A DNA stretch of 64,000 nucleotides, taken from Oceanotoga teriensis (GTDB lineage Bacteria; Thermotogota; Thermotogae; Petrotogales; Petrotogaceae). Location: assembly GCF_003148465.1 (NCBI RefSeq), contig NZ_QGGI01000003.1, positions 91,940 through 155,939 of the forward strand, in the 5' to 3' direction. The position numbers and the translations under genes are program-made. The notes below the pieces were generated by a model. The model was not told where the DNA came from and did not search any database. It saw only the letters and a list, made by a program, of their open reading frames with translations. Below, one piece after another: positions 3,526-32,455 of this stretch. How positions within the stretch are numbered: position 1 is the stretch's first letter; each line of letters begins with the position of its first letter.

Positions 3526-3532
3526 TCAGAGG

Positions 3533-9853: not shown

Positions 9854-9859
9854 GTTTCA

Positions 9860-10030: not shown

Positions 10031-10096
10031 AATAAAATAATTCTATCATAAAATGAAAAAAATTTCATAAATTAAATTGTAAAGCTTATATTAATT

Positions 10097-11251
10097 TTAT
10101 AATGAAAAAACTTGTTTTCCTTCTATAAATACTTTTTCGGCTTTTGCTTTTAAATCGAATGGATGATTTGACCATAAAACTATATCTGCTTTTTTACCTT
10201 CCTTTAGTGAGCCCACTTCATCATCAATTTTGAGAATTTTTGCAGGATTTATGGTTAACATTTTTAAAACATCATCTTCTTTTGCACCATATCTCATAGC
10301 TAATCCAGCATTTATATTAGCATGTTCAAGATGAATAACTGGATGATCACACATCATGGCACAAAGTACATTATGATCATTAAGAATTCTTACAGAATCA
10401 TAAGTAGCATCTTTTAATTCTAATTTTGTTCTAAAGCCAAATATAGGGCCTAATATCAAAGGAACGTTTTTTTTGCTAATAAATTCTGGTATTTTATAAG
10501 CTTCAGTAGCATGTTCAATTATAAGGTCAAAATCAAATTCTTCTGATAATCTTATAGCTGTTACAATATCATCTTTTCTATGTGCATGAATTCTTGCTGG
10601 AATTTCTTTATTTAATACTTTTTCACCTATTTCAAATTTTATGTCTATATCAAAATCTTTATCTTCTTTTAAAGCTTTATTTTTATTTTTCATATAATTT
10701 TTTACTTTTATAAAATATTCTCTTATCAAAGCAGCATTTCCAAGTCTTGTAGAAGGCATTTTTCCTTTTGAATCATAAACTCTTTTTGGATTTTCTCCTA
10801 AAGCCATTTTTAAACCGGAAGGTTGCTTTATTATCATTTCATCTAATATATTTGATTTGAACTTTAAAATAGCCCCTTGGCCACCTATTAAATTGGCACT
10901 TCCTGGTACTACGTTTACAGTAGTTACTCCCCCAGCTAAGGCTCTTTTTATCGCGGCATCATCCGTTATAAAAGCATCGATAGTTCTAACTTGAGGTGTT
11001 ATAGGATCTGTCATTTCATTTCCATCTTGATGTGCTCCTTCTCCAACTCCTTCTTCAAAAACGCCAATATGAGAATGTGCGTCTATAAAACCTGGAAGTA
11101 AAAACTTATTTTCTGCATCTATTATTTCATCGGCAGAATCTTTTATTTCTTTTGAAATCTTTTTTATTATATCATTTTCAATGAGAAGATCTCCTTTAAA
11201 AGGCTCTTTTTCAATAGTTACAATTGTAGCATTTTTAAATAATATTTTCAT
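10097..11251 (-). CDS. metal-dependent amidohydrolase family protein
   Basis: FIDAHSHIG HxH motif; 384 aa. Confidence 0.55.
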   Translation of the reverse strand: MKILFKNATIVTIEKEPFKGDLLIENDIIKKISKEIKDSADEIIDAENKFLLPGFIDAHSHIGVFEEGVGEGAHQDGNEMTDPITPQVRTIDAFITDDAAIKRALAGGVTTVNVVPGSANLIGGQGAILKFKSNILDEMIIKQPSGLKMALGENPKRVYDSKGKMPSTRLGNAALIREYFIKVKNYMKNKNKALKEDKDFDIDIKFEIGEKVLNKEIPARIHAHRKDDIVTAIRLSEEFDFDLIIEHATEAYKIPEFISKKNVPLILGPIFGFRTKLELKDATYDSVRILNDHNVLCAMMCDHPVIHLEHANINAGLAMRYGAKEDDVLKMLTINPAKILKIDDEVGSLKEGKKADIVLWSNHPFDLKAKAEKVFIEGKQVFSL

Positions 11252-11309
11252 AATAATTCCCCCTTGAATAAAGTTAAAATAAATATAATGAAATTATATC
11301 AAATTAAAG

Positions 11310-12515
11310 TTAGTTTGACAAACTAATATTTTTAAAATTATCATAAGAAGGTAATTGATATATTTTCAATTCAAAAGCTTCAATTACAGAGTATATATAT
11401 TCAAAAAGTTCAGATTGCACACCTTCATATTCTACCCAAGATTTTTCTTTAGAAAAAACATAGATTTCTAAAGGTAACCCATGTTCAGTGTAATCAAGAT
11501 GTCTTACAATATATGTCATTTTAGTGTTGAATTTATTGTTATTTTCAATATAATAAACTAAGTATTTTCTAAATAGTGTCAAATTACTAATATGTTTTAT
11601 TTCCATACTTTTAAGAAAATTATTTAAGAAATCACTCAAATAATTTTTAGACTTCAAATTATCTATCTTATCTTTATCAAATAATTTTATACTCTCAAAA
11701 TCTATATAAATACAACGTTTAATTCTTCTTCCACCGGATTGTTCCATACCTTTCCAATTTTTAAAAGAACTGTTAATCAATGCCCAAGTAGGAATATAAA
11801 CAAGAGTTTTATCCCAATTTTGAACTTTAATAGTATTTAATGTCATTTCAATTACATTACCATCAGCACCATATTCGTTCATAGAGATCCAATCACCTTT
11901 TCTAATCATTTTATTAGCTGTTAATTGAACATGGGCAGATAGTGAAAGAAGTGTATCTTTAAAAATAACAAGTAAGACCGCTGTCAAAGCACCTATACCA
12001 CTTAATAAATAAGTAAAATTTTTATTTATAAGTATTCCAAGAACAAGTATTCCACCTAGAGAAAATAATACTATTTGAATTAATTGAATAAATCCTTTTA
12101 TAGGACGATACTTTTTAGAATCTGATTCATATATATCAGATATAGTTCTCAGTATTCCATTTATTGTAAATATTATACTTAAAACTATATAAGAAATTGC
12201 AAACCTTTTAAAACCTTCATTGAATACCGAAAAAGTAGATGAAAATGAAAGAATAACAATTGCAGGGGCAATATGTCCTAAAGAATGAAATACTTTTTTC
12301 CTAAATAAAATATCATCCCATTTGAACTTGGATTTTTGAATTATTTTTTCTAATATTTTCATAATATATTTATTAGTTATTAAATAAGCAATATATGAAA
12401 ATATTAGCATAATACCAAATACTATAATATTACTTAAAAATCCAGAAAGATTTTCAGATAATTTATAGCTCAATAAAAAATCATTTATCAAAGAAAACAT
12501 CTTATCAACCTCCAA
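11310..12515 (-). CDS. mechanosensitive ion channel (MscS family)
   Basis: N-terminal TM helices plus a MscS beta-domain (GDWISMNEYGADGNVIEMTLNTIKV). Confidence 0.75.
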   Translation of the reverse strand: MEVDKMFSLINDFLLSYKLSENLSGFLSNIIVFGIMLIFSYIAYLITNKYIMKILEKIIQKSKFKWDDILFRKKVFHSLGHIAPAIVILSFSSTFSVFNEGFKRFAISYIVLSIIFTINGILRTISDIYESDSKKYRPIKGFIQLIQIVLFSLGGILVLGILINKNFTYLLSGIGALTAVLLVIFKDTLLSLSAHVQLTANKMIRKGDWISMNEYGADGNVIEMTLNTIKVQNWDKTLVYIPTWALINSSFKNWKGMEQSGGRRIKRCIYIDFESIKLFDKDKIDNLKSKNYLSDFLNNFLKSMEIKHISNLTLFRKYLVYYIENNNKFNTKMTYIVRHLDYTEHGLPLEIYVFSKEKSWVEYEGVQSELFEYIYSVIEAFELKIYQLPSYDNFKNISLSN

Positions 12516-17676: not shown

Positions 17677-18280
17677 CTGTTAACACCACCTCAAAATCAT
17701 CTAATTTAATATTGTATTCATCAAAAGGAGATTTTATTTTTACAGTTCCAGTGTTATTTAATATTTTTATTTTTTTATTTTTTTCAAGAATAATATTTTT
17801 ATATTCATTAGGTTTAAGTTCTATGTCTTCTACTACTATTGTATTTGAAGATAAATTTTGTATGTTTATACTTATATTATTTTTAGATATTATATTTTGA
17901 TAAAACATCATTTCACCATATATTTTGTATATATATATGCAAGTTATTAAAGAAAAAGTAATGAGAATTAGAATAAAAAAATTCTTTTTATTTTTAGAAA
18001 GAAATTTAATATCTTTTTTTTCTTTTTTTAGTTTTTCAGATTCTTCTGGAAAAAAAAGGATATTTTCATCCAGTATTATATTTAATCTACTGCATATATC
18101 ATCTATTTGAACCTTGCTATATCCATCTAATTTATTATTTATAAAATCTTGAAGCATATAAGCAGGCATTTTTAATTCTTTTGATAAACTTTCAAAAGAA
18201 AAATCTGAATTATCTATTAATTTTTTTAAGTCTTTATTGAATGTTCCTTTCATTATATCACCACCAATTAATTTTATCAT
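17663..18280 (-). CDS. HTH-domain membrane protein (RodZ-like architecture)
   Basis: N-terminal XRE-type HTH, one TM helix, C-terminal beta domain. Confidence 0.45.
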   Translation of the reverse strand: MIKLIGGDIMKGTFNKDLKKLIDNSDFSFESLSKELKMPAYMLQDFINNKLDGYSKVQIDDICSRLNIILDENILFFPEESEKLKKEKKDIKFLSKNKKNFFILILITFSLITCIYIYKIYGEMMFYQNIISKNNISINIQNLSSNTIVVEDIELKPNEYKNIILEKNKKIKILNNTGTVKIKSPFDEYNIKLDDFEVVLTDGKN

Positions 18281-18351
18281 ATTTAATAATATTTTCCATT
18301 ATTAATTGGTAAAACAAAAATTAAAAAAACATATTTAAATAAAATTAAAAT

Positions 18352-18383
18352 GCATGGTTTCTTTTTAAATGAGAAACCATGCA
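18352..18383 (-). terminator. terminator after secDF
   Basis: GAUGCAUGGUUUCUC...GAAACCAUGCAU followed by a U-run on the minus strand. Confidence 0.6.
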
Positions 18384-18413
18384 TCTTTGTTGATTAAATT
18401 TTAATTTTTAAAT

Positions 18414-20705
18414 TTATAACTTTTTACTTTTTTTAAGCATATTTATAACTATTGGACTTGCTATGTATAGAGAAGAGTATGTACCTATGACTATACCTAT
18501 TGTTAAACCAAAAGCAAAAGGGGCCATTGCTCTTCCACCAAGCATGAGCATCAAAAATACAACTATAAATGTTGTTATTGAAGTATGTAAAGATCTTATT
18601 ATAACATCATTTATACTCTTATTAACTATTACTTCTACAGGTCTACCTCTTAGATTTTTAAAGTTTTCTCTTATTCTGTCGTATACAACTATTGTATCAT
18701 TCAATGAATAACCAGCCAAAGTTAAAAATGCAGCTATTGCTGATACATTTATCTCTACACCAAATAAAGAATAAAAACCTAAAACTATGATAACATCATG
18801 AGCTAGGGCTAATAAAGCACCAATACCAAATGCAAATTTAAATCTTAAAGTTATATATGCGAGTAACATTACAAGAGAAATTATTATAGCATACCAAGCA
18901 AATGATTTAATTTCTTTTGATGCAAATCCTGAAACATCGTTGAATTGAAGAATTTCAATTTCTTGATTCAATTCTTTTGATAAAGAGTCTATAAAAGCAT
19001 CTTTTTGAACTGTATCTTCAAATGAATCTTTTATAGTAACAGAGAAGAAAAACTTATCTTCTTGTCCTTTTATTGGATCTAGTTTTACTATTTTTGCAGT
19101 TGCATAATCAGGGTCTATGTTTATCATATCATTTCTTATATCTTCTATAGATATTGAATCATCCATAGAGACTGTTATTTCTGTACCACCTGCAAAATCT
19201 ATACCATATTCAAAATTTTTAGTGAATGACAATATTAAAGCTACTGCAATTAAAACTGTAGAAAATAAGATAAATCCTTTTCTTTTTCCTACAAAATCCC
19301 AACCTTCTCTTTCACCTTTTTTTGTGAATTTTTCAGGTTTTATAAAATGTGAAGTTCCTTCGAGTATAGTTCTTGAAACAACAAGATTTGTAAACATAGA
19401 ACCAAGAACACCAATTATGAGAGTTATTGCAAAACCTCTAACTGCTCCTGTTGAAAAATAATATAAAATTATTCCAGCAATTACAGTTGTTAAGTTGGCA
19501 TCAAATAAAGTTGAAAAGGCTTTTTGAAATCCAAATTTAACAGAAGTTAAAGGAGGTCTCCCCATTCTGAGTTCTTCTTTAATTCTTTCATATATTATTA
19601 CATTTCCATCTACAGTTGTACCAAAAGTCAGAATTATACCGGCAATACCTGGTAGAGTTAAAATTGCATTTGTCCAACTCAATATACCTGTAAGAAGAAT
19701 TGTGTTATAAATCAATGCAATATCAGCTATTACTCCCATCCAACCATAGAATATGATCATATAAATCATAACGATTGCCAATCCAATTATTCCGGCTTTT
19801 ATAATTGTATCAACTATATCTCTTCCTAAAGTAGGTCCCAAAGTTCTTTCTTGGAATTTTACAAGATCTACAGGAAGGTTTCCAGATTTTATAAGAGCTG
19901 CAATATTTTTAGCTTCTTGTATTTCTTGAATTCCTTCTATTTCAGCTCCTCCTTGAGTTATTTTGGTGTTGACTACAGGAGCTATTATAACTTTATCATC
20001 AAGAATTATTGCGAGTTGTTTATTTATTAAGTTACCAGTGGCAAGTTCAAATTTTGTTGAACCTGCAGAACTAAAGTTCAAATGAACAACGGCACCAGAA
20101 CCTCTTGTATTAAGACCTGGTTTTGCATCTATTACATCTGAACCAGTTATTTCGAATGGTTCTCTTCCAAATTCAAAAACATTTTTTACTTTATACCATG
20201 TTGTATCATTTCTTTTTGATTGAATCCATGAGTACAATTCGATTGTTGAACCATTTATTTCAATTTCTCTGTTTCTCCTTAATTCAGGTTTTACATCAGT
20301 AGTTGAAGTTTCTAAAACTTCAGCAAAGTACAATTTTCCTTTACTTCCCAATAATTTTTCTGCTTCTTGAGTATCTCTTATACCAGGAATTTCTACTCTG
20401 ACTCTTAAGTTTCCACCACTATCAATCCTTGCAACTGTTGCTTCTGTATAACCTGCTGCATCAAGTCTGTTTCTCAATACTAGAATTACATTATCAATAA
20501 CATCTTGTGCTTTTACATCACCCTTTAGGTCAAGATTGTATTCAAAAAGACTTCCGCCCTGAATATCAAGTCCAAGCTTTAAGTTTGAAAATAGTTTTCC
20601 AAATCCTGAATATTCAGCTGCGTTTTTACCTGGTATAAGCATACCAAGCAATGCAACAACTATGACCGCTATTGTAAAAATTAAACGGACTTTGTTTGAT
20701 CTCAC
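18414..20705 (-). CDS. secDF: protein translocase subunit SecDF (fused)
   Basis: 763 aa; 12 TM helices with a large periplasmic loop. Confidence 0.9.
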   Translation of the reverse strand: MRSNKVRLIFTIAVIVVALLGMLIPGKNAAEYSGFGKLFSNLKLGLDIQGGSLFEYNLDLKGDVKAQDVIDNVILVLRNRLDAAGYTEATVARIDSGGNLRVRVEIPGIRDTQEAEKLLGSKGKLYFAEVLETSTTDVKPELRRNREIEINGSTIELYSWIQSKRNDTTWYKVKNVFEFGREPFEITGSDVIDAKPGLNTRGSGAVVHLNFSSAGSTKFELATGNLINKQLAIILDDKVIIAPVVNTKITQGGAEIEGIQEIQEAKNIAALIKSGNLPVDLVKFQERTLGPTLGRDIVDTIIKAGIIGLAIVMIYMIIFYGWMGVIADIALIYNTILLTGILSWTNAILTLPGIAGIILTFGTTVDGNVIIYERIKEELRMGRPPLTSVKFGFQKAFSTLFDANLTTVIAGIILYYFSTGAVRGFAITLIIGVLGSMFTNLVVSRTILEGTSHFIKPEKFTKKGEREGWDFVGKRKGFILFSTVLIAVALILSFTKNFEYGIDFAGGTEITVSMDDSISIEDIRNDMINIDPDYATAKIVKLDPIKGQEDKFFFSVTIKDSFEDTVQKDAFIDSLSKELNQEIEILQFNDVSGFASKEIKSFAWYAIIISLVMLLAYITLRFKFAFGIGALLALAHDVIIVLGFYSLFGVEINVSAIAAFLTLAGYSLNDTIVVYDRIRENFKNLRGRPVEVIVNKSINDVIIRSLHTSITTFIVVFLMLMLGGRAMAPFAFGLTIGIVIGTYSSLYIASPIVINMLKKSKKL

Positions 20706-20732
20706 CGAAGGTACCCCCTTATAATAAAAAAA

Positions 20733-21215
20733 TTATTTTTTATCTTCGTCTTTCTTTTCTTCTTCTTTTGGTGCAGATTTTTCAGGAGAAGAATCTTTGG
20801 ATAAAACGGCAGAAATTGCATTTTTTGTTATATCGATATCTGTTCTGTCGCCTGTGGTTATTCTTATTCTATCATTTTGAATAGAAAGTATTTTTCCTAT
20901 TATTCCAGAGGAAGTTAAAATTTTGTCTCCTTTTTTTAACTCAGAAATCATTTTTTTATGTTTCTTTTCTTGTCTTCTTTGAGGTAATATCAATAAAACA
21001 TACATTAAAACAAAGAAAATTAAAATAATCCATAGACTACCAAATGGTGAACCCGAAGGAACAGCAGCACCAGTTGTTGCGGCACCTCCTGTTGCAGGAG
21101 CAGCACCTGTACTACCAGCCGGTCCAAAGTTTATAAAATTAAGAACTCTTTCTAACAATTGTTCCACCTCCAAAAGCTTTAAAATATTAAAATATCTCAT
21201 TTTATTATAACACAT
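20733..21215 (-). CDS. yajC: preprotein translocase subunit YajC (N-terminal extension, start uncertain)
   Basis: TM helix followed by LPQRRQ...GDKILTSSGIIGKI YajC core. Confidence 0.7.
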   Translation of the reverse strand: MCYNKMRYFNILKLLEVEQLLERVLNFINFGPAGSTGAAPATGGAATTGAAVPSGSPFGSLWIILIFFVLMYVLLILPQRRQEKKHKKMISELKKGDKILTSSGIIGKILSIQNDRIRITTGDRTDIDITKNAISAVLSKDSSPEKSAPKEEEKKDEDKK

Positions 21216-21351
21216 AATATATTATAATTGCCAGAAAATAATTAGTTTTTTTATATATTTTTAAAGTTTTTTAAGGTCTATAAGGTATTATGTTCTGAAT
21301 GTTTTATATAAAATATGATAGAATATAATAAAAAAATGGGAGGTAGAAATA

Positions 21352-22628
21352 TGAAAAAATTTAGTATGTTTCTTTTGATTATTAGTTTTTTTGTGATATC
21401 TTTTTCTAGTGTGACTGATTTTATACCTAATGATTCCAAAGCTACTTTTTATATAAAGAATCTATCTAATACTTATGAAAGTTTGAAAACAGTTCCTACT
21501 GTGGGGAGTTTTTTATCTGATCCAATAAATGCAGAAATGTATGTATCAAATTTTGTTGAAAGTTTTTTAGCATCTATGGGTATAGAACCAAAGGATTTTT
21601 TTGAATCGTTAAAGACTGATATGGCTATTTTTATACAGGAACCAGAAGAAAATACTTATATTTTTGGGATTATTTTTGGTGAACTTAAAAATCCTAATAA
21701 ATTTTATGATTCTGTATCCAAAATAATAGAGCCTTTATCAGAATCCGGTATAAGTTTTAATCCAATATATAAAGAAATTTCAGGCAAAAAATATTTGATT
21801 ATGGTTCAAGATAAATCAATTTATGAAGACAGCAAGAAGGGAGATATTAAATTTTATGAACAATATGAAAATGGAATCTATTTTAATATAAATTCTTCAG
21901 ATTTGAAAAATACAGGTTTTGCTTATATAAAAGATAACTATTTAATTGGAACTTCTACAGGAAATTTAAATGAAGATTCTGTAAATCAAAAATATTTAAA
22001 AGATGTTTCGGATTATAATTTTCTTGGTACTGCTTTTCTCGCATCTGGTTTTTTACCTAAAGATATAAATTCGATAAAAGAAATTATAAGTATAGTAGCC
22101 GAACCATCTATTGTTGAAAATATATTGAAGTCTTCAAATGGATTTGAAGTTAATTCTAATATAGATATAAATATAGAAGAGAACATAAAAATTTCAAATA
22201 CCAGTTATGTAAAAATTGATACGAGCACACAATTAAAAAATATAGAACCTATAATGAAGGAAAATAAATTAAAATATAATTATTTGGATGAAAACCATAT
22301 GGAATTTGAAATAAAAATAGATGAAAATATATCAAATACTGAAATGAAAGCTTTAAAATATAATATGTGGAAAAAATCCGATAATATTTTTATTTCAGAA
22401 GATAATGAAGAAAATTTAAATAAAAAACTTCAAAATTCTATTAAACTTTCAGAAAACAAAACATATGAAGAATTATCAAAAAAAATAGGTACAGCAAACT
22501 TAGTATTAGCTTTTGTAGATTTTTCTAAATTCTTTGAAAAATTTGGAGCTTCAGAAAATTTTGGTTTTTTATTAAATGTGAATTATTTGGGAAATGGAGC
22601 TATGAAGGCTGATTTTGTGTTAAAATAA
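21352..22628 (+). CDS. hypothetical secreted protein
   Basis: GGGAGG RBS; signal peptide MKKFSMFLLIISFFVISFSS. Confidence 0.5.
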
Positions 22629-22688
22629 TTGATTAAACCAAAAAATCTTAACTTGACAAAATTAAAATAAAATTATAAAATCTATAAT

Positions 22689-22750
22689 GCACAATGAAGT
22701 GTTAAAAGCGATGAAGCTATGCGAATAATAATTCGCATAGCTTTTTTTTA
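22689..22750 (+). promoter_or_regulatory. ANTAR-type dual hairpin (P1 and P2) overlapping an intrinsic terminator, eutG leader
   Basis: P1 GCAC-AAUGAA-GUGU; P2 AGC-GAUGAA-GCU, whose 3' arm is the 5' arm of the terminator GCUAUGCGAAUAAUAAUUCGCAUAGC followed by U8. Confidence 0.65.
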
Positions 22751-22765
22751 TTTATGAGGAGGGAC

Positions 22766-23926
22766 ATGATGAATTATTTCGGTTTAAGAACAGAAATTTA
22801 TTCTGGAGAAAATAGTTTAAATAAATTAAATGAAATCAATTTAAAAAAAATATTTATAGTTACAGATCCTTTTATGGTAAAGTCTGGAATGATTGATAAA
22901 ATAACTGAAAGTTTAAAAAAAGATATTGAATATAAAATATTTTCACAAATAGTTCCTGACCCACCATTAGAAGTTATAATGAAAGGTGTAAATGAGCTTA
23001 ATGAATTTGAATCTGAAGGAATAATTGCACTCGGTGGAGGCTCTGCTATAGATGCTGCAAAAGCAATAAGTTGTTTTTTTAATAGAATAAATGAAAAAAA
23101 GAGTAATATAAAAAATAAAACACTTTATTTTATAGCAATACCTACTACTTCTGGAACTGGTTCTGAAGTTACAAGTTTTTCAGTTATAACTGATAAAGAA
23201 AAAAATATAAAATATCCACTCATATCAGATGAATTATTGCCTAATATGGCTATTTTAGATCCGGAATTAGTTAAATCTGTACCCGATTTTATAACAGCTG
23301 ATACTGGAATGGATGTTTTAACACATGCTATAGAAGCTTATGTTTCTACTGAAGCTAATGATTTTACAGATGCTCTTTCGGAAAAAGCAATAAAAATAGT
23401 ATTTGAATATTTAAAAAGAGCATATAAAAATGGAAATGATACTCAAGCAAGAATAAAAATGCATAATGCTTCATGTATTGCAGGTATTGCTTTTAACAAT
23501 GTTTCATTGGGATTGAATCATGGAATGGCACATATTCTTGGAGGGAAATTTCATATTCCACATGGTAGAGCAAATGCTATATTATTACCTTATGTTATAG
23601 AATATAATGCTGAATTAGGAAATTATTTGGATAAAAAAACATCAACAACTGCAAAAAGATATGCCAATATAGCAAAAATACTTGGATTATCTTGTTCAAA
23701 TACTAAAATAGGCGTAAAAAATTTAATTTTTGAGATAAATAAATTAAAAAAAGAATTGAATATACCAAATTCAATAAAAGAAGTTGGTATAAAAGAAAAT
23801 GATTTTGATCAAGCTTTAGACTTTTTATCACAAAAAGCAATTGAAGACAGATGTACTGAAACTAATCCAAGAAAGCCAAAGGTAGAAGAAATAAAAACTT
23901 TATTTAAAAAAGTATATAATGGATAA
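22766..23926 (+). CDS. eutG: iron-containing alcohol dehydrogenase (ethanolamine utilisation)
   Basis: Fe-ADH motifs (GGGSAID, HGxAH); location in the eut locus. Confidence 0.8.
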   Translation: MMNYFGLRTEIYSGENSLNKLNEINLKKIFIVTDPFMVKSGMIDKITESLKKDIEYKIFSQIVPDPPLEVIMKGVNELNEFESEGIIALGGGSAIDAAKAISCFFNRINEKKSNIKNKTLYFIAIPTTSGTGSEVTSFSVITDKEKNIKYPLISDELLPNMAILDPELVKSVPDFITADTGMDVLTHAIEAYVSTEANDFTDALSEKAIKIVFEYLKRAYKNGNDTQARIKMHNASCIAGIAFNNVSLGLNHGMAHILGGKFHIPHGRANAILLPYVIEYNAELGNYLDKKTSTTAKRYANIAKILGLSCSNTKIGVKNLIFEINKLKKELNIPNSIKEVGIKENDFDQALDFLSQKAIEDRCTETNPRKPKVEEIKTLFKKVYNG

Positions 23927-23988
23927 TAATATTAAAAATAAAGAATAATTTTTTTAAAAATTTAATAATCTGTAAACTTAATTTTAAG

Positions 23989-24018
23989 TTGACAAATTAC
24001 ATGATAATAATGTAAAAT
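23989..24018 (+). promoter_or_regulatory. sigma70-like promoter (TTGACA, 18-nt spacer, TGTAAAAT)
   Basis: consensus -35 and an extended -10 upstream of the eutS leader. Confidence 0.5.
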
Positions 24019-24033
24019 AAAAAGAGAAAAAAT

Positions 24034-24122
24034 GCACAATGGAGTGTGTTTATTAAAAATAAGCAAAGAAGCTTCTAAAAGAATACATTATTTCATATTC
24101 TTTAGAAGCTATTATTTTTTTA
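24034..24122 (+). promoter_or_regulatory. ANTAR-type dual hairpin overlapping a terminator, eutS leader
   Basis: P1 GCAC-AAUGGA-GUGU; P2 AGC-AAAGAA-GCU; P2 3' arm lies inside the terminator AGCUUCUAAAAGAAUA...UAUUCUUUAGAAGCU followed by a U-run. Confidence 0.7.
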
Positions 24123-24153
24123 TAAAATAAATTTAAGAATGGTGATAAATAAA

Positions 24154-24498
24154 ATGGAAGAAAAACAAAGAACTATACAAGAATATGTTCCTGGAAAACA
24201 AGTAACATTAGCTCATTTAATAGCAAATCCAGATACAGACTTATATAAAAAATTAGGATTAAATGTACAAACTAAAGAAGCTATAGGTATACTCACTATA
24301 ACTCCAAGTGAGGCGGCAATAATCGCAGCAGATGTTGCTACAAAAGCTGCGGGAGTTAAAATAGGTTTTGTTGATAGATTTAGCGGATCATTAGTTATAA
24401 CTGGAGATGTTGGAAGTGTAGAAGCTGCATTAAAAGATGTTGTTAAGATGCTTATAAATACATTGAAATTTTCTGGTACAAATATAACGAGGACTTGA
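24154..24498 (+). CDS. eutS: BMC shell protein EutS/PduU type (permuted BMC-H)
   Basis: [27 protein letters not shown]-terminus typical of EutS; RBS before the ATG at 24154. Confidence 0.8.
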
Positions 24499-24935
24499 AT
24501 ATGAAAAAAATAATGCTTATTGGTAAGACTGGAAGTGGTAAAACAACTTTTTGTCAAGCTTATAAAAATCAAGAATTAATATATAAAAAAACACAAGCCA
24601 TAGACTTTATGGATGAATTAATAGATACTCCGGGAGAATATATAGAAAATAGAGTCTATTACAAAGCCTTAATAGTGACTTCAAATGAGTGTGATATCAT
24701 TTGTTTCCTTAATGATCCTACTTCTGATGAAAGTTTTTTACCACCAGGATTTGCAAGTATGTTTAATAAAGAAACTATTGGACTTATAACAAAAATAGAA
24801 AAATCTTCAAATGAAAACATAAAGAAAGCTGAAGAAAATTTAAAATTATCTGGAGTAGAAAAAATTTTTAAGATAGATAACTTTTCGAAGAAAGGATTTG
24901 AAGAGTTGGAGAATTATATAAATAGTTTGTCATAA
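24495..24935 (+). CDS. eutP: EutP/PduV-family GTPase
   Basis: P-loop GKTGSGKTT; 146 aa. Confidence 0.8.
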
Positions 24936-24946
24936 TGAGGTGAATT

Positions 24947-25360
24947 ATGAAAGAAAAAATAGTAATAGCTGATGATGAGCCTATTACAAGGCAGGATTTA
25001 CGAGAAATCCTTGAAATAGCCGGATACAATGTTGTAGCGGATGCTTCTGATGGGTTTGATGCTGTAGAACTATGTAGAAAATTTAAACCTGATCTCGTTT
25101 TAATGGACATAAAAATGCCTTTGTTGGATGGCTTAAATGCTTCAAAAATAATAACTTCAGAAGGATTAGCAGGTGGGGTTATATTATTAACAGCCTATAG
25201 TGATGAAGATTTTATAGCAAAAGCCAAAAAATCAGGTGTTATAGGTTACTTAGTTAAGCCTATTGATGAAAGATCTTTAATACCATCCATAGAAATATCT
25301 TTAAGTAAATGTGTTGAAATAAATAGAATGAAAGAAGATATAAAAAAAGCCAATAAAAAA
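24947..25360 (+). pseudogene. eutV: eutV 5' fragment (receiver domain of the ANTAR response regulator), truncated by an IS insertion
   Basis: CheY-like receiver (DDEP...D54-like...K); the reading frame ends in a TGA supplied by the first bases of the IS. Confidence 0.8.
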
Positions 25361-25402
25361 TGAACTGACCCATGTCAAGTAGACACAAAAATTAATAAAA
25401 AA

Positions 25403-26221
25403 TTATATACAATTGGATGCTTGGTTTCTGAACTCAACAGGAGCCATGCATCCAAGTTTTTTCTGGAATCTACGATTGTTATAAAAATCAATGTATTTGT
25501 GAATAGCTTTCTCTAATTCTTCAAGAGAATTAAACTTCTTACCATAAAACATCTCAGATTTAAGAGTACCAAAAAATCCTTCCATAGGGCCATTATCTAT
25601 ACATTTACCAACACGAGACATACTTTGTGTCATTTCAGATTCTTCTAGTTTAGTTTTAAATACTCTACCAGTATATTGAAATCCCCTGTCACTATGAAAT
25701 ATTGGTTTAGCTTCTGGATATTTTTCTATTGCTTTATCGAACATTTTGAATACAAGTCTGTTGTCGTTTCTATATGATGTTTCATATACCACTATATCGT
25801 TACCATGTAGATCCATTACAGGACTTAAATAAAGTTTTCTTGTATCTGTTGGTATTGAAAACTCAGTTACATCTGTCAACCATTTTTCATTTGGGTTTTC
25901 TGTACTGAAATCTCTGGATAGTATGTTCTCTTTTGTGTATTCAGGTTTTGTCCTCTTACGATTAATTTTCTTTCTTCTTATCCTGGAAGATACTCCTAAA
26001 AGTTTCATCAGTCTGTGTATATAACCTTCAGAATATTCTTTTTGGTTTAATCTGTTTATGTACATGGTCATTCTTCTGTATCCAAGTATCCCGTCATATG
26101 TAGCATGGTATTCTTGAATTAGATTACATATAGTTTCATCTTGAATTTCTTTTTGTGGTTTTTCCCTTTTTTGATTTTTGTAGTATGAACTTCTGGATAT
26201 TTTCAACACATCACACAACAT
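25403..26221 (-). CDS. IS3-family transposase OrfB (rve integrase core; made as OrfAB by a -1 frameshift)
   Basis: LCDVLKISRSSYYK start typical of IS3/IS150 OrfB; DDE core (HSDRG...). Confidence 0.8.
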   Translation of the reverse strand: MLCDVLKISRSSYYKNQKREKPQKEIQDETICNLIQEYHATYDGILGYRRMTMYINRLNQKEYSEGYIHRLMKLLGVSSRIRRKKINRKRTKPEYTKENILSRDFSTENPNEKWLTDVTEFSIPTDTRKLYLSPVMDLHGNDIVVYETSYRNDNRLVFKMFDKAIEKYPEAKPIFHSDRGFQYTGRVFKTKLEESEMTQSMSRVGKCIDNGPMEGFFGTLKSEMFYGKKFNSLEELEKAIHKYIDFYNNRRFQKKLGCMAPVEFRNQASNCI

Positions 26222-26280
26222 TTTAACTGTGTATCCTTTGGTTTTGTAGTAATCTACCGTTTTGTATTCACCATATTGTT

Positions 26281-26985
26281 TTACTCTCGAGATTCTCTTT
26301 CTTTTTGGAATTCCTCTTTTTTTTTATGTACTTCTAACTCAAAAGCTAATCTTTTGTTTTTAGCTCTTTCTCTTTCCAATTCAAGTTTTAATTTCTGATT
26401 TTCTGTCAGTTCATCTTCTTTTATGTCAGTTTTAGATTTAGGACCACGTTTCCCATATTTGAGTGATTCAGGACCTTTGTTTAAATACATCTTTGTCCAT
26501 TTATATACTGAAGAATATTTTATTGCATGTTTATCTGCAGCTTCTTTGTAGTTCATATCGTTGTTTATTACCCATTTAACTATTTCTAATCTTTCTTTGT
26601 ATGTAGTTTTTCTTGACTCCATGGTATAGACATCTCCTTTCGGATCATAATCTTTCAATTCTATACCATTATAATACTTATTTATCCAATTTTTTATTAT
26701 TGAAACATGAATATCATATTTTACTGATAAATCCATGGCTGAAAATTTTCCATCTATGTATTTTTTAACTACAAATAGCTTGAATTCCTTACTGTATGAT
26801 TTATTTCTTTTTGTTATTTCAAATACTTTTTCTCCATGTTGTATATATCTGTGATACCAATCACTTAAAGATGATTTATCACATCCCACTGATTTTGATA
26901 TACTTTTGAAACTTCCTTTTCCTGCTATGTAATCTTTACATGCTTTTACCTTTGTTTCTTTACTATATTTCCCTTTTCTCGACAT
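26281..26985 (-). CDS. IS3-family transposase OrfA (HTH)
   Basis: DNA-binding HTH and leucine-zipper region; ends inside the A AAA AAA AAG frameshift window. Confidence 0.8.
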   Translation of the reverse strand: MSRKGKYSKETKVKACKDYIAGKGSFKSISKSVGCDKSSLSDWYHRYIQHGEKVFEITKRNKSYSKEFKLFVVKKYIDGKFSAMDLSVKYDIHVSIIKNWINKYYNGIELKDYDPKGDVYTMESRKTTYKERLEIVKWVINNDMNYKEAADKHAIKYSSVYKWTKMYLNKGPESLKYGKRGPKSKTDIKEDELTENQKLKLELERERAKNKRLAFELEVHKKKEEFQKERESRE

Positions 26986-27055
26986 AATAAATATACCTCC
27001 AAAGCAGCTTTGTAATTTTTATTAATTACGTGTCTACTTTGGAGGTATCATATCA

Positions 27056-27220
27056 AAACTTGAAGATAGAAAAATTATAGAAAAAGCAAAGGGTATACTA
27101 ATGGAAAAAGAAAATTTATCTGAAAAAACTGCTTTTGAAAGAATAAGAACATTAAGTATGAATAAAAGATGTTCTATGAAAGATATAGCAGAGGCTATTG
27201 TGATAAGTTATGAAGAGTAA
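27056..27220 (+). pseudogene. eutV: eutV 3' fragment (ANTAR domain)
   Basis: KLEDRKIIEKAKGILMEKENLSEKTAFERIRTLSMNKRCSMKDIAEAIV is a canonical ANTAR motif; it is in frame with the 5' fragment once the IS and one AAA copy are removed. Confidence 0.8.
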
Positions 27221-28616
27221 AATATGTGAATTATGTAAAAAATATACAGACCTTGATGAAGAAGATATAAAAATATTAGAAAACTATTCTTTATGTATGG
27301 ATGCAGTAGCTGATATTGAAAATGCTGATGTATTTATAGATAGTTTGACAAGAGATAATGATGAAGCTATAGTGATAGCCCAAGCTAAGCCTAAAAATAC
27401 AAAATCAATGTATAACAGATCTGTTATTGGTGAAATAGCTTATAGAAAAAATGAACCAGCAGTTTTAAGGACTTTACAACTTGGAATATCGACCAAAGAT
27501 ATAAAAGCACTAACTCAAGAAGAAGTTAGTGTAAGGCAAACAGTAGCCCCAATAAAAAATAAAGATAAAGTAATAGGAGTTTTAATCATAGAAAAAGATA
27601 TAACAGAGAAAATAAATAAAGATAAATATATGGAAGTATTGGAACAGAGTTATGAAAAGCTTACAGATACTTTGTTGTATATGACTGAAAATGATGGTAC
27701 TATAACAAATCATATTGATGAAATAATAATGATGTTTGATGAAGAGGGAATACTAAAATTTGCCAATTCAGTAGCTGAAGAATTATATTTAAAACTTGGG
27801 TACAGAGATAACCTTATAGGTATGAAATATGATAATGTTTCTCTTGATGATTCGAAGTTTAAAGATATAATAAATGAAGGTTGTATACAAGAAAGTGAGA
27901 TAAATTATGGGAAATATTTTTTTAATATAAAAAAAATAATATCCAGTAGAGAATCTTTCAAATTAATTCTAATGATTAAGGATATAACGGATATGAAAGA
28001 AAAAGAAAAAGAACTCATACTAAAATCTGTAGCAATAAAAGAAATACATCATAGAGTAAAAAATAATCTTCAAACTATTGCCAGTTTATTGAGACTTCAA
28101 TCAAGGAGATGTGTTAGCGAAGAAGCTAAAAATGCATTAAATGAAAGTATGAATAGAATTTTAAGCATATCTGCTACTCATGAAATACTTTCTCAAGAAG
28201 GTCTTGATGAACTTTATATATTTGAGGTTATAAAGAACATAAAAACAAGTATTATGCGGGCTTACAGAAATCCGAATGCAGAACTTATAATAAATTTAAT
28301 GGGTGATGATTTCAAAATAAGCTCTGATAAATCAACATCTATAGCTCTCATAATAAATGAATTACTTCAAAATTGTATAAAATATGCTTTTATAGGGAAA
28401 GAAAAAGGACAAATAGATATAAAAATTGAAAGAGGTGATTTATATTCTACAATATCAATTATAGATAATGGTATTGGTTTTGATATAAATCATATGAAAA
28501 AAAATAGTCTTGGTTTTACAATAGTAGAGAGTCTTGTCAAAGACAAACTTTATGGTAATATAAAAATAAATTCTGATAAAAATGGAACGAAAGTTTTGTT
28601 TGATTTTAAAAATTAA
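27210..28616 (+). CDS. eutW: sensor histidine kinase EutW
   Basis: HHRVKNNLQ H-box and an HATPase_c C-terminus; overlaps the eutV 3' end as in Firmicutes eut loci. Confidence 0.8.
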   Translation: MKSKICELCKKYTDLDEEDIKILENYSLCMDAVADIENADVFIDSLTRDNDEAIVIAQAKPKNTKSMYNRSVIGEIAYRKNEPAVLRTLQLGISTKDIKALTQEEVSVRQTVAPIKNKDKVIGVLIIEKDITEKINKDKYMEVLEQSYEKLTDTLLYMTENDGTITNHIDEIIMMFDEEGILKFANSVAEELYLKLGYRDNLIGMKYDNVSLDDSKFKDIINEGCIQESEINYGKYFFNIKKIISSRESFKLILMIKDITDMKEKEKELILKSVAIKEIHHRVKNNLQTIASLLRLQSRRCVSEEAKNALNESMNRILSISATHEILSQEGLDELYIFEVIKNIKTSIMRAYRNPNAELIINLMGDDFKISSDKSTSIALIINELLQNCIKYAFIGKEKGQIDIKIERGDLYSTISIIDNGIGFDINHMKKNSLGFTIVESLVKDKLYGNIKINSDKNGTKVLFDFKN

Positions 28617-28625
28617 ATAATAAAA

Positions 28626-28695
28626 TACAATGATGTATTAAAAAAAGCAATGAGGCTTAAAACTATTTTTTATAGTTTTAAGCCTTTTTATTTTT
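28626..28695 (+). promoter_or_regulatory. ANTAR-type dual hairpin overlapping a terminator, eutA leader
   Basis: P1 UAC-AAUGAU-GUA; P2 AGC-AAUGAG-GCU; terminator AGGCUUAAAACUAU-UUUUU-AUAGUUUUAAGCCU followed by a U-run. Confidence 0.7.
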
Positions 28696-28714
28696 CAAAA
28701 GAAGGTGTCGTTGA

Positions 28715-30145
28715 ATGAAAGAAAAGTTTTTAAGTGCAGGTATTGATATAGGAACTTCTACAACGCAACTTGTTTTTAGTGAAATAACTATAGAAAATAT
28801 GGCTTCTGATTTTACAGTTCCAAGAATAAAAATAGTAGATAAAGAAATAGTTTATAGAAGTAATATATACTTTACACCTTTGATAAATCAAAATGAAATT
28901 GATGGTGAAAAGGTAAGAGAAATAGTTGAAATTGAATATAAAAAAGCTGGATATGAATCAGAAAATATAAAAACTGGTGCAGTTATTATAACTGGAGAAA
29001 CAGCAAGGAAAAAAAATGCAAATGAAGTTTTACAAAATCTTAGTGGATTAGCAGGAGATTTTGTAGTTGCGACAGCTGGACCAGATTTAGAATCAATAAT
29101 TGCAGCTAAAGGTGCTGGAGCAGATATTTTATCAGAGAAAAAAAGAAATACAGTTGTAAATCTCGATATAGGTGGAGGAACTACAAATTTAGCTGCTTTT
29201 CATGATGGAATTCTTTTAGATACTGGATGTCTTGATATAGGTGGAAGATTGATTAAATATGATAATTATAAAAAAATTACATATATTTCACCTAAGTTAC
29301 AAAAAATAATAGAAAATGAAAATATAAATTTAAAAGTTGGACAAGAGATAGATTTAATAGAATTAAAAAAAATAATAAATATTATGGTTGATTTACTTTA
29401 TCAATCTATAAACAAAAAAGAAATGAGTTCGTACTATGACTTTATTTTAACTAATAAAGGAATAAAACAAGATATAAATGTTGATTGTATAACCTTTTCT
29501 GGAGGTGTTGCTGATTATGTATACAATCAAAACTATGAAGATCTTTTTAAATATGGAGATATTGGAATTATATTGGGGAAAGCTATAAAAGAATCTAATT
29601 TATTTAAAAATATAGATATTGGACAAGCAGTTGAAACGATAAGAGCAACTGTTGTAGGAGCTGGAACACATACAACTGATATATCTGGAAGTACAATAAC
29701 ATATTCTGAGCAACTTTTACCATTAAAAAATGTGCCTATATTAAAACTTGAAAAACATGAAGAAATTTTAGATAATAAAGAATTTATATCTGTTATAAAT
29801 AAGAAAATTTCTTGGTTTGAAAATGAAAATTCTCTTCAACAAATAGCTATAGCGATAAATGGAAAAGAATATACAAAATTTGTAGATATACAAAATCTTG
29901 CACAAAATCTAATAGATGGAAGTAAAAAATTATTAGATTTGGGCTATCCATTAATAGTAATAGTAGAAAATGATATAGCAAAAGTATTAGGTCAAACTCT
30001 AAATAGCAAATTAAATTATAAAAAAGAATTAATTTGTATAGATGGAATAAAGGTTGAAAACGGAGATTATATAGATATTGGTAAACCTTTGGCCGAAGGT
30101 AAAGTATTGCCTGTTGTTATAAAAACTTTAGTTTTTAATTCATAA
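28715..30145 (+). CDS. eutA: ethanolamine ammonia-lyase reactivase EutA
   Basis: 476 aa; ASKHA-fold start GIDIGTSTT. Confidence 0.85.
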
Positions 30146-30169
30146 AAAATGAATGAAGGAGTGACTATA

Positions 30170-31534
30170 GTGAAATTAAAAGCCAAATTATTTGGTCATA
30201 CGTATTCTTTTAAATCGATAATGGATGTTATGGCTAAAGCTAATGAAGAAAAATCTGGAGACAAGCTTGCAGGAATATCGGCTAATTCTTCAGAAGAAAG
30301 AGTTGCAGCAAAAGTAGTTTTATCTGAATTGACTTTAGAAGATTTGAGAAATAATCCAGCAGTTCCATATGAAGAAGATGAAGTTACAAGAATAATTCAG
30401 GATCAAGTAAATGAAAAAATATATGCTGAATTAAAAAATAAGACAGTCTCTGAATTTAGAGAATGGATACTTGATGAAAATACTACTGGAGAAATGATAA
30501 GAAGAGCTAGTAGAGGGATAACAAGTGAAATGGTTGCGGCTGTTGCAAAATTAATGTCAAATCTTGATTTAATATATGCTGCGAACAAGATAGAAATAAC
30601 TGCTCATTGTAATACAACTATAGGATATAAAGGCAGATTATCTGCAAGATTACAACCAAATCATCCTACAGATAATCCAGATGGAATATTAGTATCATTG
30701 ATGGAAGGATTAAGCTATGGAGTTGGAGATGCTGTTATAGGTTTAAATCCAGTTGATGATTCTGTTGAAAGTGTTACAAGAGTACTCAAAAAATTTGAAG
30801 AATTTAAACAAAAATGGGAAATTCCAACACAAAATTGTGTTTTAGCTCATGTAACAACACAAATGGAAGCTATAAAAAAAGGTGCACCATCAGATCTTAT
30901 ATTTCAGAGTATTGCTGGATCTCAAAAAGGGAATGAAGCTTTTGGGATAACTGGAGAAATGATAGAAGAAGCAAGACAACTTGCATTAAAAGAGGGTACT
31001 GGAGCAGGACCTAATGTTATGTATTTTGAAACAGGTCAAGGTTCAGAGTTATCAGCAGATGCTCACAATGGAGTAGATCAGGTTACTATGGAAGCGAGAT
31101 GTTATGGATTTGCAAAAAAATATGATCCTTTTCTTGTTAACACAGTTGTTGGATTTATAGGTCCTGAATATTTATATGATAGTAAACAGGTTATAAGAGC
31201 TGGACTTGAAGATCATTTTATGGGAAAACTCACAGGTATATCTATGGGCTGTGATGCTTGTTATACAAATCATATGAAAGCTGATCAAAATGATATAGAA
31301 AATCTTGCTGTACTTTTATCTAATGCAGGCTGTAATTATTTTATGGGTATTCCCCATGGAGATGATGTAATGCTTAACTATCAATGTACAGGTTATCATG
31401 AAACTGCAGCATTAAGACAATTATTGGGATTAAAACCTATTAAAGAATTTGAAATTTGGTTAGAAAAAATGGGTATTATGAATAATGGAAAATTAACTGA
31501 AATTGCCGGAGATGCTTCAATATTTCTTAAATAA
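30170..31534 (+). CDS. eutB: ethanolamine ammonia-lyase large subunit
   Basis: VKLKAKLFGHTYSFKS N-terminus typical of EutB; GTG start after a GAAGGAG RBS, so the track ATG at 30149 is unlikely. Confidence 0.9.
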   Translation: MKLKAKLFGHTYSFKSIMDVMAKANEEKSGDKLAGISANSSEERVAAKVVLSELTLEDLRNNPAVPYEEDEVTRIIQDQVNEKIYAELKNKTVSEFREWILDENTTGEMIRRASRGITSEMVAAVAKLMSNLDLIYAANKIEITAHCNTTIGYKGRLSARLQPNHPTDNPDGILVSLMEGLSYGVGDAVIGLNPVDDSVESVTRVLKKFEEFKQKWEIPTQNCVLAHVTTQMEAIKKGAPSDLIFQSIAGSQKGNEAFGITGEMIEEARQLALKEGTGAGPNVMYFETGQGSELSADAHNGVDQVTMEARCYGFAKKYDPFLVNTVVGFIGPEYLYDSKQVIRAGLEDHFMGKLTGISMGCDACYTNHMKADQNDIENLAVLLSNAGCNYFMGIPHGDDVMLNYQCTGYHETAALRQLLGLKPIKEFEIWLEKMGIMNNGKLTEIAGDASIFLK

Positions 31535-31546
31535 AGAGGTGGGAAA

Positions 31547-32455
31547 ATGCAACTTGAAAGCAGTGAATTAAAAAAATTAGTTGAACAAGTTTTAAATGAA
31601 ATGACTTCAGGTAACACAGAAAAAGTAAAAGAAGAAGTTATTAATAAAGTACAACAAACTAATAATATAACATCTGATTCTAATATAGAAGAAGGTTGTA
31701 TTGAAGATATAACAGAAACAGATTTAAAAACTCAGTTATTAGTTGAAAATCCAGCTGATAGAGAAGGATATTTAAAAATGAAACAAAATACTCCAGCAAG
31801 AATAGGAGTTGGAAGAGCAGGAGTTAGATATAAGACATTATCTTCTTTAAGATTTAGAGCAGATCATGCCGCAGCTCAAGATGCTGTTTTTTCTTATGTA
31901 TCTGATGAGTTTTTAAATGAAATGGGACTTTTCACAGTTCAAAGTAAGTGTAAAACAAAAGATGAATATATAACTAGACCTGATTTAGGAAGGAAAATAA
32001 ATGAAGAAGGTATTGATCTGATAAAAGAAAAATGTAAAATAAATCCAACAGTACAGATATTAATTGCAGATGGATTAAGTTCTTCAGCTATAGAAGCAAA
32101 TTTAAAAGATATACTTCCATCAATTGTACAGGGGCTAAAAGGTTTTAATATAGATATTGGAACTACATTTTTTGTAAAACTTGGTAGAGTTGGAGTTATG
32201 GATCATGTTTCAGAAATAACGAATGCAGAAGTTACTTGTTTATTAGTTGGAGAAAGGCCAGGGCTTGTTACTGCTGAAAGTATGAGTGCTTATATTGCAT
32301 ACAAAGCTAAAGTTAACATGCCAGAAGCAAGAAGAACAGTTATATCTAACATACATAAAGGTGGTACTTCTGCTGTAGAAGCAGGTGCTCATATTGCTGA
32401 GCTTATAAAAACTATGTTAGAGAAAAAAGCAAGTGGAATTGAATTAAAAGCTTAG
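31547..32455 (+). CDS. eutC: ethanolamine ammonia-lyase small subunit
   Basis: conserved EutC core plus an amphipathic N-terminal extension ([13 protein letters not shown]) typical of encapsulation peptides. Confidence 0.85.

Follow-up and report, generated by a model that had tools for sequence, protein, structure and literature searches.

The closest described relative of the RNA element reported here is the eutS leader of Enterococcus faecalis, a substrate of the ANTAR-domain antiterminator EutV (Fox 2009; Ramesh 2012, PMC3369931). The ANTAR substrate contains a conserved 13-nt sequence, AGCAANGRRGCUY, which forms the second of two hairpins, P2 (Ramesh 2012, PMC3369931), and in E. faecalis the closing pairs of the first hairpin, P1 (5'-AC...GU-3'), are conserved and sequence-specific (PMC3369931). 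Phosphorylation drives the dimerisation of E. faecalis EutV, matching the presence of two hairpins (PMC3369931; review PMC5821096). The hexaloop hairpins are recognised there through A1, G4, and the closing pairs, and it is only for E. faecalis that direct binding and signal-dependent antitermination have been demonstrated (PMC3369931). A eutS-lacZ fusion in this organism is induced by ethanolamine plus adenosylcobalamin (AdoCbl), depends on EutVW, and is expressed constitutively once the terminator has been deleted (PMC3369931), and constitutive promoters were found at three of its four leader regions (PMC5821096). Clostridioides difficile 630 has three ANTAR hits in its eut locus, and the top one, with 48.8 bits and located about 1 kb upstream of eutV, is the eutS leader (PMC3369931, Table S1). 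We analysed a stretch of 64,000 nt from Oceanotoga teriensis (contig NZ_QGGI01000003.1), referred to throughout as the window, in which a similar leader precedes the genes eutS, eutP, eutV, and eutW. The EUT2I locus of O. teriensis is described as the only microcompartment locus in the Thermotogae and as probably transferred from a Firmicute (Sutter et al. 2021, PMC8217296).

On the basis of its sequence and of the analogy with E. faecalis, this leader is very probably a cis-acting transcription-attenuation leader of the EutV/ANTAR class, subject to EutV-dependent antitermination, a reading to which we assign a probability of roughly 0.88.

Architecture of the eutS leader

The core of P1 pairs GCAC (24034-24037) with GUGU (24044-24047) around the hexaloop AAUGGA at 24038-24043, through the pairs G24034-U24047, C24035-G24046, A24036-U24045, and C24037-G24044. 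In a fold of the nascent RNA from 24026 to 24092 the stem extends to 8 bp, with 24030-24037 pairing to 24044-24051. P2 consists of the pairs A24061-U24074, A24062-U24073, G24063-C24072, and C24064-G24071, which enclose the loop AAAGAA at 24065-24070. The linker, measured between the 4-bp cores of both hairpins, is 13 nt long, and its length differs among homologues. Both hexaloops have an A at position 1 and a G at position 4, and these columns are invariant or nearly so in the alignments A3 and A4 of homologous leaders.

The terminator stem is formed by 24070-24085 with 24096-24110 and has 15 bp, a 1-nt bulge at A24080, and a 10-nt loop; the tract AUUAUUUUUUU follows on its 3' side at 24111-24121. 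P2 and the terminator are mutually exclusive, because the 3' arm of P2, GCUU at 24071-24074, is part of the terminator 5' arm. The energies predicted at 37 °C are -14.2 kcal/mol for the terminator, -2.5 kcal/mol for P2, and -3.2 kcal/mol for the P1 core, and the fold of the leader is more stable than those of all 200 shuffled sequences (z = -3.6). A generic terminator scan did not call this terminator, because its 10-nt loop is above the limit of the scan and the T-run begins 4 nt past the stem.

The sequence AGCAAAGAAGCUU at 24062-24074 fits the published motif at every position. When the P2 motif was searched alone in the 64-kb window, using a 12-nt relaxed form of the 13-nt motif, AGCRANGRRGCT, four matches were obtained where 0.07 were expected, an enrichment of about 60-fold. 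Three of the four are located in intergenic leaders, upstream of eutG (22707), eutS (24062), and eutA (28646). The fourth match, AGCGAAGAAGCT at 28116-28127 on the plus strand, lies inside eutW and has neither a P1, nor a terminator, nor a covariance-model match, and it was treated as a chance occurrence.

The whole window was searched, with filters off, with a covariance model, R2, whose 100 source sites all come from other genomes and not from the window. The best match was the eutS leader (24028-24078; 54.2 bits, expectation value E = 1.6e-11), followed by the eutA leader (28619-28662; 48.3 bits, E = 5e-10) and the eutG leader (22683-22721; 25.0 bits, E = 4e-4). Nothing else in the window scored below E = 0.1.

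The original prediction had read from the letters two hairpins, CAC-AAUGGA-GUG and AGC-AAAGAA-GCU, with A and G at loop positions 1 and 4 and with the 3' arm of the second inside the 5' arm of a terminator, and the sequence and the folds bear out each of these elements at the same coordinates. The covariance-model and covariation analysis that it had proposed as a check gave the R2 match of 54.2 bits and a clear covariation of P1 and P2, described in the following section. Tandem stems of at least 3 bp, the A1 and G4 loop residues, the 13-nt motif, the overlap with the terminator, the P1 closing pairs, and the covariation are thus all found together, and the identification as an ANTAR dual-hairpin/terminator element stands.

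Conservation and covariation of the hairpins

An alignment of EutS homologues led to 80 eutS loci, with one genome per species. Many of these loci proved, in a simple hairpin scan, to have the dual hexaloop motif with a T-run behind it at a distance of 90-180 nt upstream of eutS, among them those of Clostridium, Clostridioides, Hathewaya, Paraclostridium, Romboutsia, Paenibacillus, Brevibacillus, and a metagenome-assembled Spirochaetaceae genome. In the last of these, the ANTAR site of the eutS leader is located at 2880-2921 of the retrieved locus (L067).

A clean alignment (A3) was obtained from 24 distinct leaders plus that of the window, and on these 25 orthologues RNAalifold, run unguided, predicts exactly P1 and P2. 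Pairing holds for 99% of the cells in A3, whereas shuffled alignments reach 88% and slid partners no more than 52%. The script that selected the sequences for A3 demanded three loop-adjacent pairs, so that only the outer pairs constitute an unbiased test; the fourth P1 pair is GC in 10 leaders, AU in 7, UA in 7, and GU in 1.

Another model, R1, built from A3, found 100 sites in 71 eutS loci, 95 of them distinct; these 100 sites are the ones used for R2. All of them are on the eut strand and occur at only three positions relative to eutS: one about 1.4 kb upstream, corresponding to the eutG leader, one directly in front of the gene, and one about 2.8 kb downstream, corresponding to the eutA leader. 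Among the 95 distinct sites, P1 pair 7-20 is realized as GC (34), AU (32), UA (15), CG (8), or GU (5), P1 pair 8-19 mainly as CG (66) or UA (22), and the outer pair of P2 mainly as AU (50) or GC (20). Paired cells amount to 98.4% in the R1 sites, compared with 87% after shuffling and at most 56% with slid partners, and none of 500 shuffles reached the observed covariation score; the inner pairs of the sites had been pre-selected or fitted by the model. Every one of the 95 distinct sites has the loop-closing C-G pair of P1, and 91 have the A-U pair next to it; the window has C-A-C / G-U-G.

According to a script-based count, a terminator overlaps P2 in 33 of 40 eutS leaders of other genomes. 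Of the three leader classes, that of eutS has the best-conserved dual hairpin and the highest model scores. With R1, the three-site layout was also found in C. difficile strain HC132 (L016). The gammaproteobacterial eutS loci of Endozoicomonas and Kistimonas (L056-L058, L079-L080) gave no ANTAR site match, which suggests that ANTAR RNA sites travel with the EutVW-type module and not with other types of eut loci.

A conserved promoter upstream of the hairpins

The promoter consists of the -35 hexamer TTGACA (23989-23994), an 18-nt spacer, and the -10 hexamer TAAAAT (24013-24018), and it ends 15 nt upstream of the P1 core. A TG at 24011-24012 abuts the -10 hexamer and was not scored as an extended -10 element by the scan. 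The position of the promoter would place the transcript start at about 24024-24026. The consensus match taken alone says little: the 9.5-kb region has fewer promoter-like sites than its shuffled versions, and one 11/12 match is found inside eutW.

The conservation of the promoter was therefore compared between other genomes and shuffled sequences, counting leaders in which a match of 10/12 or better lies no more than 75 nt upstream of P1. Such a match is present in 81% of the eutS leaders (n = 42), many of them with 12/12, in 64% of the eutG leaders (n = 33), and in 4% of the eutA leaders (n = 25), and in about 6% of the shuffled controls. The window follows the same order, with 11/12 promoters at the eutG and eutS leaders and none at the eutA leader. 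This pattern, in the window and across genomes, agrees with that of E. faecalis in that some leaders have promoters, and not all of them. A further promoter-like sequence at 24101-24128, 3' of the hairpins, matches 9/12, as is typical of an AT-rich background, and was not adopted.

Gene context and sibling leaders

Gene identities were assigned by NCBIfam and Pfam scans and by the genes called on a sibling contig (L001; GCA_030445905.1, 'Oceanotoga sp.'), which is metagenome-assembled and 99% identical to the window. The features are listed in Table 1.

Table 1. Coordinates of the eutS leader, its gene surroundings, and further features of the window.
Feature	Position	Strand	Basis or remark
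Probable EutV/ANTAR dual-hairpin and terminator element	24030-24121	+	sequence reading and RNA folds
P1 hairpin	24030-24051	+	sequence, nascent-RNA fold, covariation, RNAalifold
P1-P2 linker, A/U-rich	24052-24060	+	sequence
P2 hairpin, AAGC-AAAGAA-GCUU	24061-24074	+	sequence, motif, nascent-RNA fold, covariation, RNAalifold
Intrinsic terminator	24070-24121	+	folds; -14.2 kcal/mol at 37 °C
Sigma-70-type promoter	23989-24018	+	11/12 match; conserved upstream of eutS leaders
eutG leader (sibling site 1)	22653-22749	+	motif, R2, folds
eutA leader (sibling site 3)	28625-28695	+	motif, R2, terminator scan; without a promoter of its own
yajC	20733-21215	-	
437-aa open reading frame	21315-22628	+	between yajC and the eutG leader
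eutG	22754-23926	+	
eutS	24139 or (more likely) 24154 to 24498	+	NCBIfam EutS above cutoff
eutP	24495-24935	+	NCBIfam EutP/PduV above cutoff
eutV, 5' part, receiver domain	24947-25360	+	Response_reg, E = 6e-28
IS3-family element, 1695 bp	25361-27055	-	splits eutV between receiver and ANTAR domains
IS3 orfB, 272 aa	25403-26221	-	
IS3 orfA, 234 aa	26281-26985	-	
eutV, 3' part, ANTAR domain	27056-27220	+	ANTAR PF03861, E = 7e-22
eutW, sensor histidine kinase (PdtaS-type GAF, HisKA_2, HATPase)	27210-28616	+	last gene of the unit
eutA	28715-30145	+	
THF (tetrahydrofolate) riboswitch	9929-10027	-	Rfam gathering score, 61 bits
tRNA	56476-56547	-	Rfam gathering score, 58.5 bits
Bacterial small SRP (signal recognition particle) RNA	61025-61124	+	Rfam gathering score, 72.9 bits

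The genes eutS, eutP, eutV, and eutW overlap or nearly abut, and the only plus-strand terminators predicted in this stretch are the three leader terminators, with none between eutS and the eutA leader. With the terminators of the eutS and eutA leaders as its bounds, this set of genes is therefore read as one unit, and the eutA leader forms its 3' boundary. Downstream of eutA follow eutB, eutC, and shell and enzyme genes, so that the locus has the EUT2-type order, namely eutG, eutS-eutP-eutV-eutW, and eutA-eutB-eutC, with ANTAR sites before eutG, eutS, and eutA. Since no terminator is located between eutG and the eutS leader, read-through transcripts from the eutG promoter would carry the hairpins as well. 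The start of eutS is probably the ATG at 24154 (114 aa) rather than that at 24139 (119 aa), judging from a GGTGA 8 nt upstream, from the length of most homologues (114-117 aa), and from the 114 aa called on a contig of the SRR7081813 assembly.

The eutG leader has a promoter (TTGACA-17-TAAAAT, 22653-22681), a P1 at 22689-22702 with the loop AAUGAA, a P2 at 22707-22718 with the loop GAUGAA, and a terminator at 22713-22744 followed by a U-tract. Its P2 loop carries G instead of A at position 1, and its linker has only 4 nt; both features also occur in the eutG leaders of alignment A4 and, from the sequences, look like natural variation of this class. In the eutA leader, P1 (28625-28638, loop AAUGAU) and P2 (28645-28658, loop AAUGAG) are followed by a terminator at 28652-28686 and a U-tract. 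Neither a cobalamin riboswitch nor an orphan, terminator-less ANTAR site analogous to EutX/Rli55 was detectable in the window, and Clostridium eut loci likewise have no associated riboswitch (PMC5821096).

The 437-aa open reading frame upstream of the eutG leader belongs to no NCBIfam family and in Pfam only has a sub-threshold match to PNGaseA (E = 0.009). It is conserved in the sibling contig, and no ANTAR site precedes it.

An insertion sequence disrupts eutV

In the window, eutV is interrupted by an insertion sequence (IS) of the IS3 family, which has TG...CA ends, imperfect terminal inverted repeats, and a 3-bp AAA target duplication. The sibling contig defines the junctions: in a BLAST comparison, its positions 1-7222 correspond to window positions 18139-25360 and its positions 7219-12164 to 27055-32000. 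Its EutV is intact, with 191 aa and both the receiver and the ANTAR domain. The leader of the sibling contig is identical to that of the window and was left out of the covariation analysis, the contig being used for the IS junctions. The two diverge unevenly: on the left side of the IS there are 48 mismatches in 7.2 kb (99.3% identity), on the right side only 4 in 4.9 kb (99.9%).

The truncated eutV reading frame of the window encodes 138 aa with the receiver domain only, its end at 25363 already falling within the IS. The ANTAR domain (Pfam positions 6-54) is found on the far side of the insertion, where the only in-frame reading frame starts at the ATG at 27101 and covers the last 39 aa. An orphan ANTAR fragment at 27056-27220 acting as a constitutive antiterminator was considered and rejected, as this 39-aa reading frame is shorter than the domain. 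The IS is present in a single copy in the window, and at least 16 contigs carry the identical transposase in other surroundings. The disrupted eutV allele is also present in the assembly of SRR7081813. From the distribution of the transposase and the intact eutV of the sibling contig we conclude that the IS is active and that the disruption is strain-specific, and one Oceanotoga strain has probably lost the inducibility of the locus in this way.

The promoter, the gene order, and the IS insertion had all been part of the original prediction. The first is upheld by its 11/12 match and by the conservation of 81% against about 6%, the second by the domain scans and the gene calls of the sibling contig, and the third by the junctions and the intact 191-aa EutV of that contig.

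Proposed mechanism

EutV binding, antitermination, the ethanolamine signal, and autoregulation are inferred here by analogy with the work on E. faecalis (PMC3369931, PMC5821096). In a genome with an intact eutV, transcription would start at about 24025 at the conserved promoter, and read-through transcripts from eutG would enter the leader too. By default the leader would fold into the 15-bp terminator (24070-24110) followed by the U-tract, and most transcripts would stop near 24121. Ethanolamine would activate the kinase EutW, and phosphorylated EutV would dimerise, with each ANTAR domain gripping one hexaloop hairpin, AAUGGA of P1 or AAAGAA of P2, via A1 and G4. P2, which is predicted to be weak when alone (about -2.5 kcal/mol), would be held closed, and GCUU at 24071-24074, the base of the terminator 5' arm, would be sequestered. 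With the terminator blocked, RNA polymerase would run on into eutS-eutP-eutV-eutW, and eutG and the genes from eutA onward would be gated likewise by the two sibling sites.

Because eutV and eutW are located behind the eutS-leader site, and given the behavior of eutS-lacZ in E. faecalis, positive autoregulation of eutVW would be the natural reading for an intact genome; a literature search on EutVW autoregulation did not find an explicit statement of it. Basal expression of eutVW could come from leakage through the terminator of the eutS leader, which is predicted to be weaker than the other two in the window (-14.2 compared with about -19 kcal/mol at 37 °C, and -8 compared with about -13 kcal/mol at 55 °C). 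This predicted weakness would fit a leaky gate for basal EutVW. Across genomes, the median terminator energies are -17.7 kcal/mol for eutG, -16.1 kcal/mol for eutS, and -20.6 kcal/mol for eutA leaders, from a script that failed on several loci, and the predicted class difference is only a hint, not a result. In the genome of the window, the cognate antiterminator is missing, and the three terminators should consequently be constitutively closed and the locus uninducible.

Weighing the alternatives

Several points weigh against the reading of the leader as a EutV-dependent antitermination site. The curated Rfam models gave no confirmation: in Rfam 15 the eutS-leader region has no match at the gathering thresholds, and at E <= 10 the region 22600-28750 yields only noise (small nucleolar RNA, CRISPR-DR, and small RNA families with E > 1); this null result says nothing against membership. 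The sites behind our own models had been pre-selected for hexaloop hairpins, so the three loop-proximal pairs were guaranteed and the covarying fourth pair was not. At 55 °C the predicted energy of the terminator is only -8 kcal/mol and that of P2 about -0.2 kcal/mol; O. teriensis has a growth range of 25-70 °C and an optimum of 55-58 °C (PMC7795431), and since the predicted stabilities fall at the growth optimum, the switch behavior in the host is uncertain. Ethanolamine does not induce eutS-eutP-eutV-eutW in Fusobacterium nucleatum, where loss of eutV by mutation raises eutS and eutW (PMC11796344); judged by this analogy, positive autoregulation is not universal. Finally, with eutV broken, the element in this genome may currently only terminate.

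The most serious alternative, which we nevertheless consider unlikely, accepts a genuine ANTAR site and proposes that eutS-eutP-eutV-eutW is effectively constitutive or negatively regulated, the eutS-leader terminator being leaky, especially at the growth temperature of the host, so that control by EutV would matter mainly at the eutG and eutA leaders. The F. nucleatum data, in which the four genes are unchanged or down with ethanolamine, point in this direction, as do the weakness of the terminator in the window, with its interrupted U-tract and 10-nt loop, and the slightly weaker median of eutS-leader terminators across genomes. That difference between classes is, however, small, and the script behind it is crude; in E. 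faecalis the strong induction of eutS-lacZ depends on EutVW and on the terminator (PMC3369931), and the superior conservation of the eutS-leader dual hairpin argues for its selection as a regulated site.

It is far less probable that another ANTAR regulator, encoded elsewhere, serves the element in the IS-carrying genome and keeps the locus inducible. Such cross-talk draws on the dual-hexaloop architecture, which is generic to the substrates of EutV, NasR, and AmiR (PMC3369931), and on the one-to-many wiring of E. faecalis, where a site beyond the eut locus is also under EutV control. Of the window proteins that were scanned, however, only the eutV fragment gave an ANTAR match, the remaining open reading frames of the window lying outside that scan, and a native partner is not expected for a eut locus recently imported into the Thermotogota (PMC8217296).

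Two further alternatives are hardly credible. That the element is a plain intrinsic terminator of eutG with two small hairpins arising by chance in AT-rich DNA would suit its position 145 nt past the eutG stop codon, the absence of another terminator after eutG, and the frequency of short hairpins at 27% G+C, but it is contradicted by the match at E = 1.6e-11 to a model made from other genomes, by the exact 13-nt motif and the roughly 60-fold enrichment of its relaxed form, by the conservation and covariation of the element at the same position across dozens of genera, and by the conserved promoter between eutG and the hairpins. That the terminated leader RNA of about 96 nt (24025-24121) sequesters EutV in trans, like a sponge, would follow the EutX/Rli55 small RNAs, which carry an ANTAR site and titrate EutV (PMC5821096), and would fill a role left vacant by the lack of a cobalamin riboswitch or EutX equivalent among the features found in the window, but formation of the terminator in that transcript disrupts P2 and removes the dual-hairpin ligand, and the EutX site is defined by its non-overlap with a terminator, with no riboswitch aptamer being present here.

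Origin and implications

The genes around the locus and the locus itself have different nearest relatives. The flanking SecDF is closest to Petrotogaceae (Tepiditoga, Petrotoga, Marinitoga, and Defluviitoga; 64-76% identity), and EutS, after the Oceanotoga self-hit, is closest to Clostridia (73-80% identity). The G+C content of the window is 26.8%. SecD and SecF are apparently fused in a 763-aa open reading frame (18414-20705, minus strand), and among the Petrotogaceae relatives listed, the closest have SecD only, with a length of about 470 aa and a coverage of about 61% of the query.

A wider combined reading, speculative and as a whole rather unlikely, would be that a Firmicute ANTAR circuit moved together with its cis-acting RNA sites into a moderately thermophilic Thermotogota host and still works there, with the eutS site leaking in a temperature-dependent way, and so setting the basal level of EutVW, and with the two stronger terminators remaining tight; the insertion of IS3 would then be a natural regulator-null allele and may reflect the loss of a costly acquired pathway.

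For annotation, the segments 22689-22749, 24030-24121, and 28625-28695 should be labeled as probable EutV/ANTAR antiterminator sites and eutV as IS-disrupted. An EutVW-type eut module crossing phyla, from Firmicutes to Thermotogota, would bring its RNA operators and promoters along intact. The locus offers no new mechanism and makes no long-standing question testable; what goes beyond routine annotation is the strain-specific knock-out of the regulator by an IS and the thermophilic host. The natural pair of genomes with eutV intact or disrupted is usable for studying ANTAR control and autoregulation in a thermophile.

Comparison with known systems

The eutS leader of E. faecalis (Fox 2009; Ramesh 2012, PMC3369931) shares with that of the window its architecture, a near-identical sequence, a promoter of its own, and the 13-nt motif. 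It consists of GCAC-AACGGC-GUGC, a 12-nt linker, GAGC-AAAGAA-GCUC, and a terminator (Fig. S1, PMC3369931), and the window leader, with GCAC-AAUGGA-GUGU, a 13-nt linker, AAGC-AAAGAA-GCUU, and a terminator, is nearly superimposable on it. In both organisms eutS follows downstream, and then eutV and eutW. In O. teriensis, however, eutP is located between eutS and eutV, whereas in E. faecalis a separate leader upstream of eutG serves eutP. Further differences are the Thermotogota host, the IS-disrupted eutV, and the lack of a detected AdoCbl riboswitch or EutX in the window.

The gene order eutG / eutS-eutP-eutV-eutW / eutA, with sites before eutG, eutS, and eutA, is also that of C. difficile 630 and Clostridium tetani (Ramesh 2012, Table S1). 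Compared with C. difficile, EutS is 73% identical, the lower stem of P1 and the linker differ, and the host belongs to another phylum.

More distant parallels are NasR/nasF of Klebsiella oxytoca and AmiR/amiE of Pseudomonas aeruginosa, in which an ANTAR antiterminator acts on two A1/G4 hexaloops, the second of them overlapping a terminator (PMC3369931). Their sensory input is not a receiver domain, being NIT in NasR and the partner AmiC in AmiR; their pathways concern nitrate and amidase, and each system has one site, compared with three here. The EutX/Rli55 small RNAs of E. faecalis and Listeria monocytogenes belong to the same regulon and also contain a EutV-binding dual hairpin (PMC5821096), but EutX, whose site does not overlap a terminator, is a trans-acting sponge and is coupled to an AdoCbl riboswitch, whereas the element of the window would be cis-acting, overlaps a terminator, and has no riboswitch.

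The three-site layout was thus already published for C. difficile in 2012, and the element of O. teriensis is an orthologue of a well-characterised regulatory RNA.

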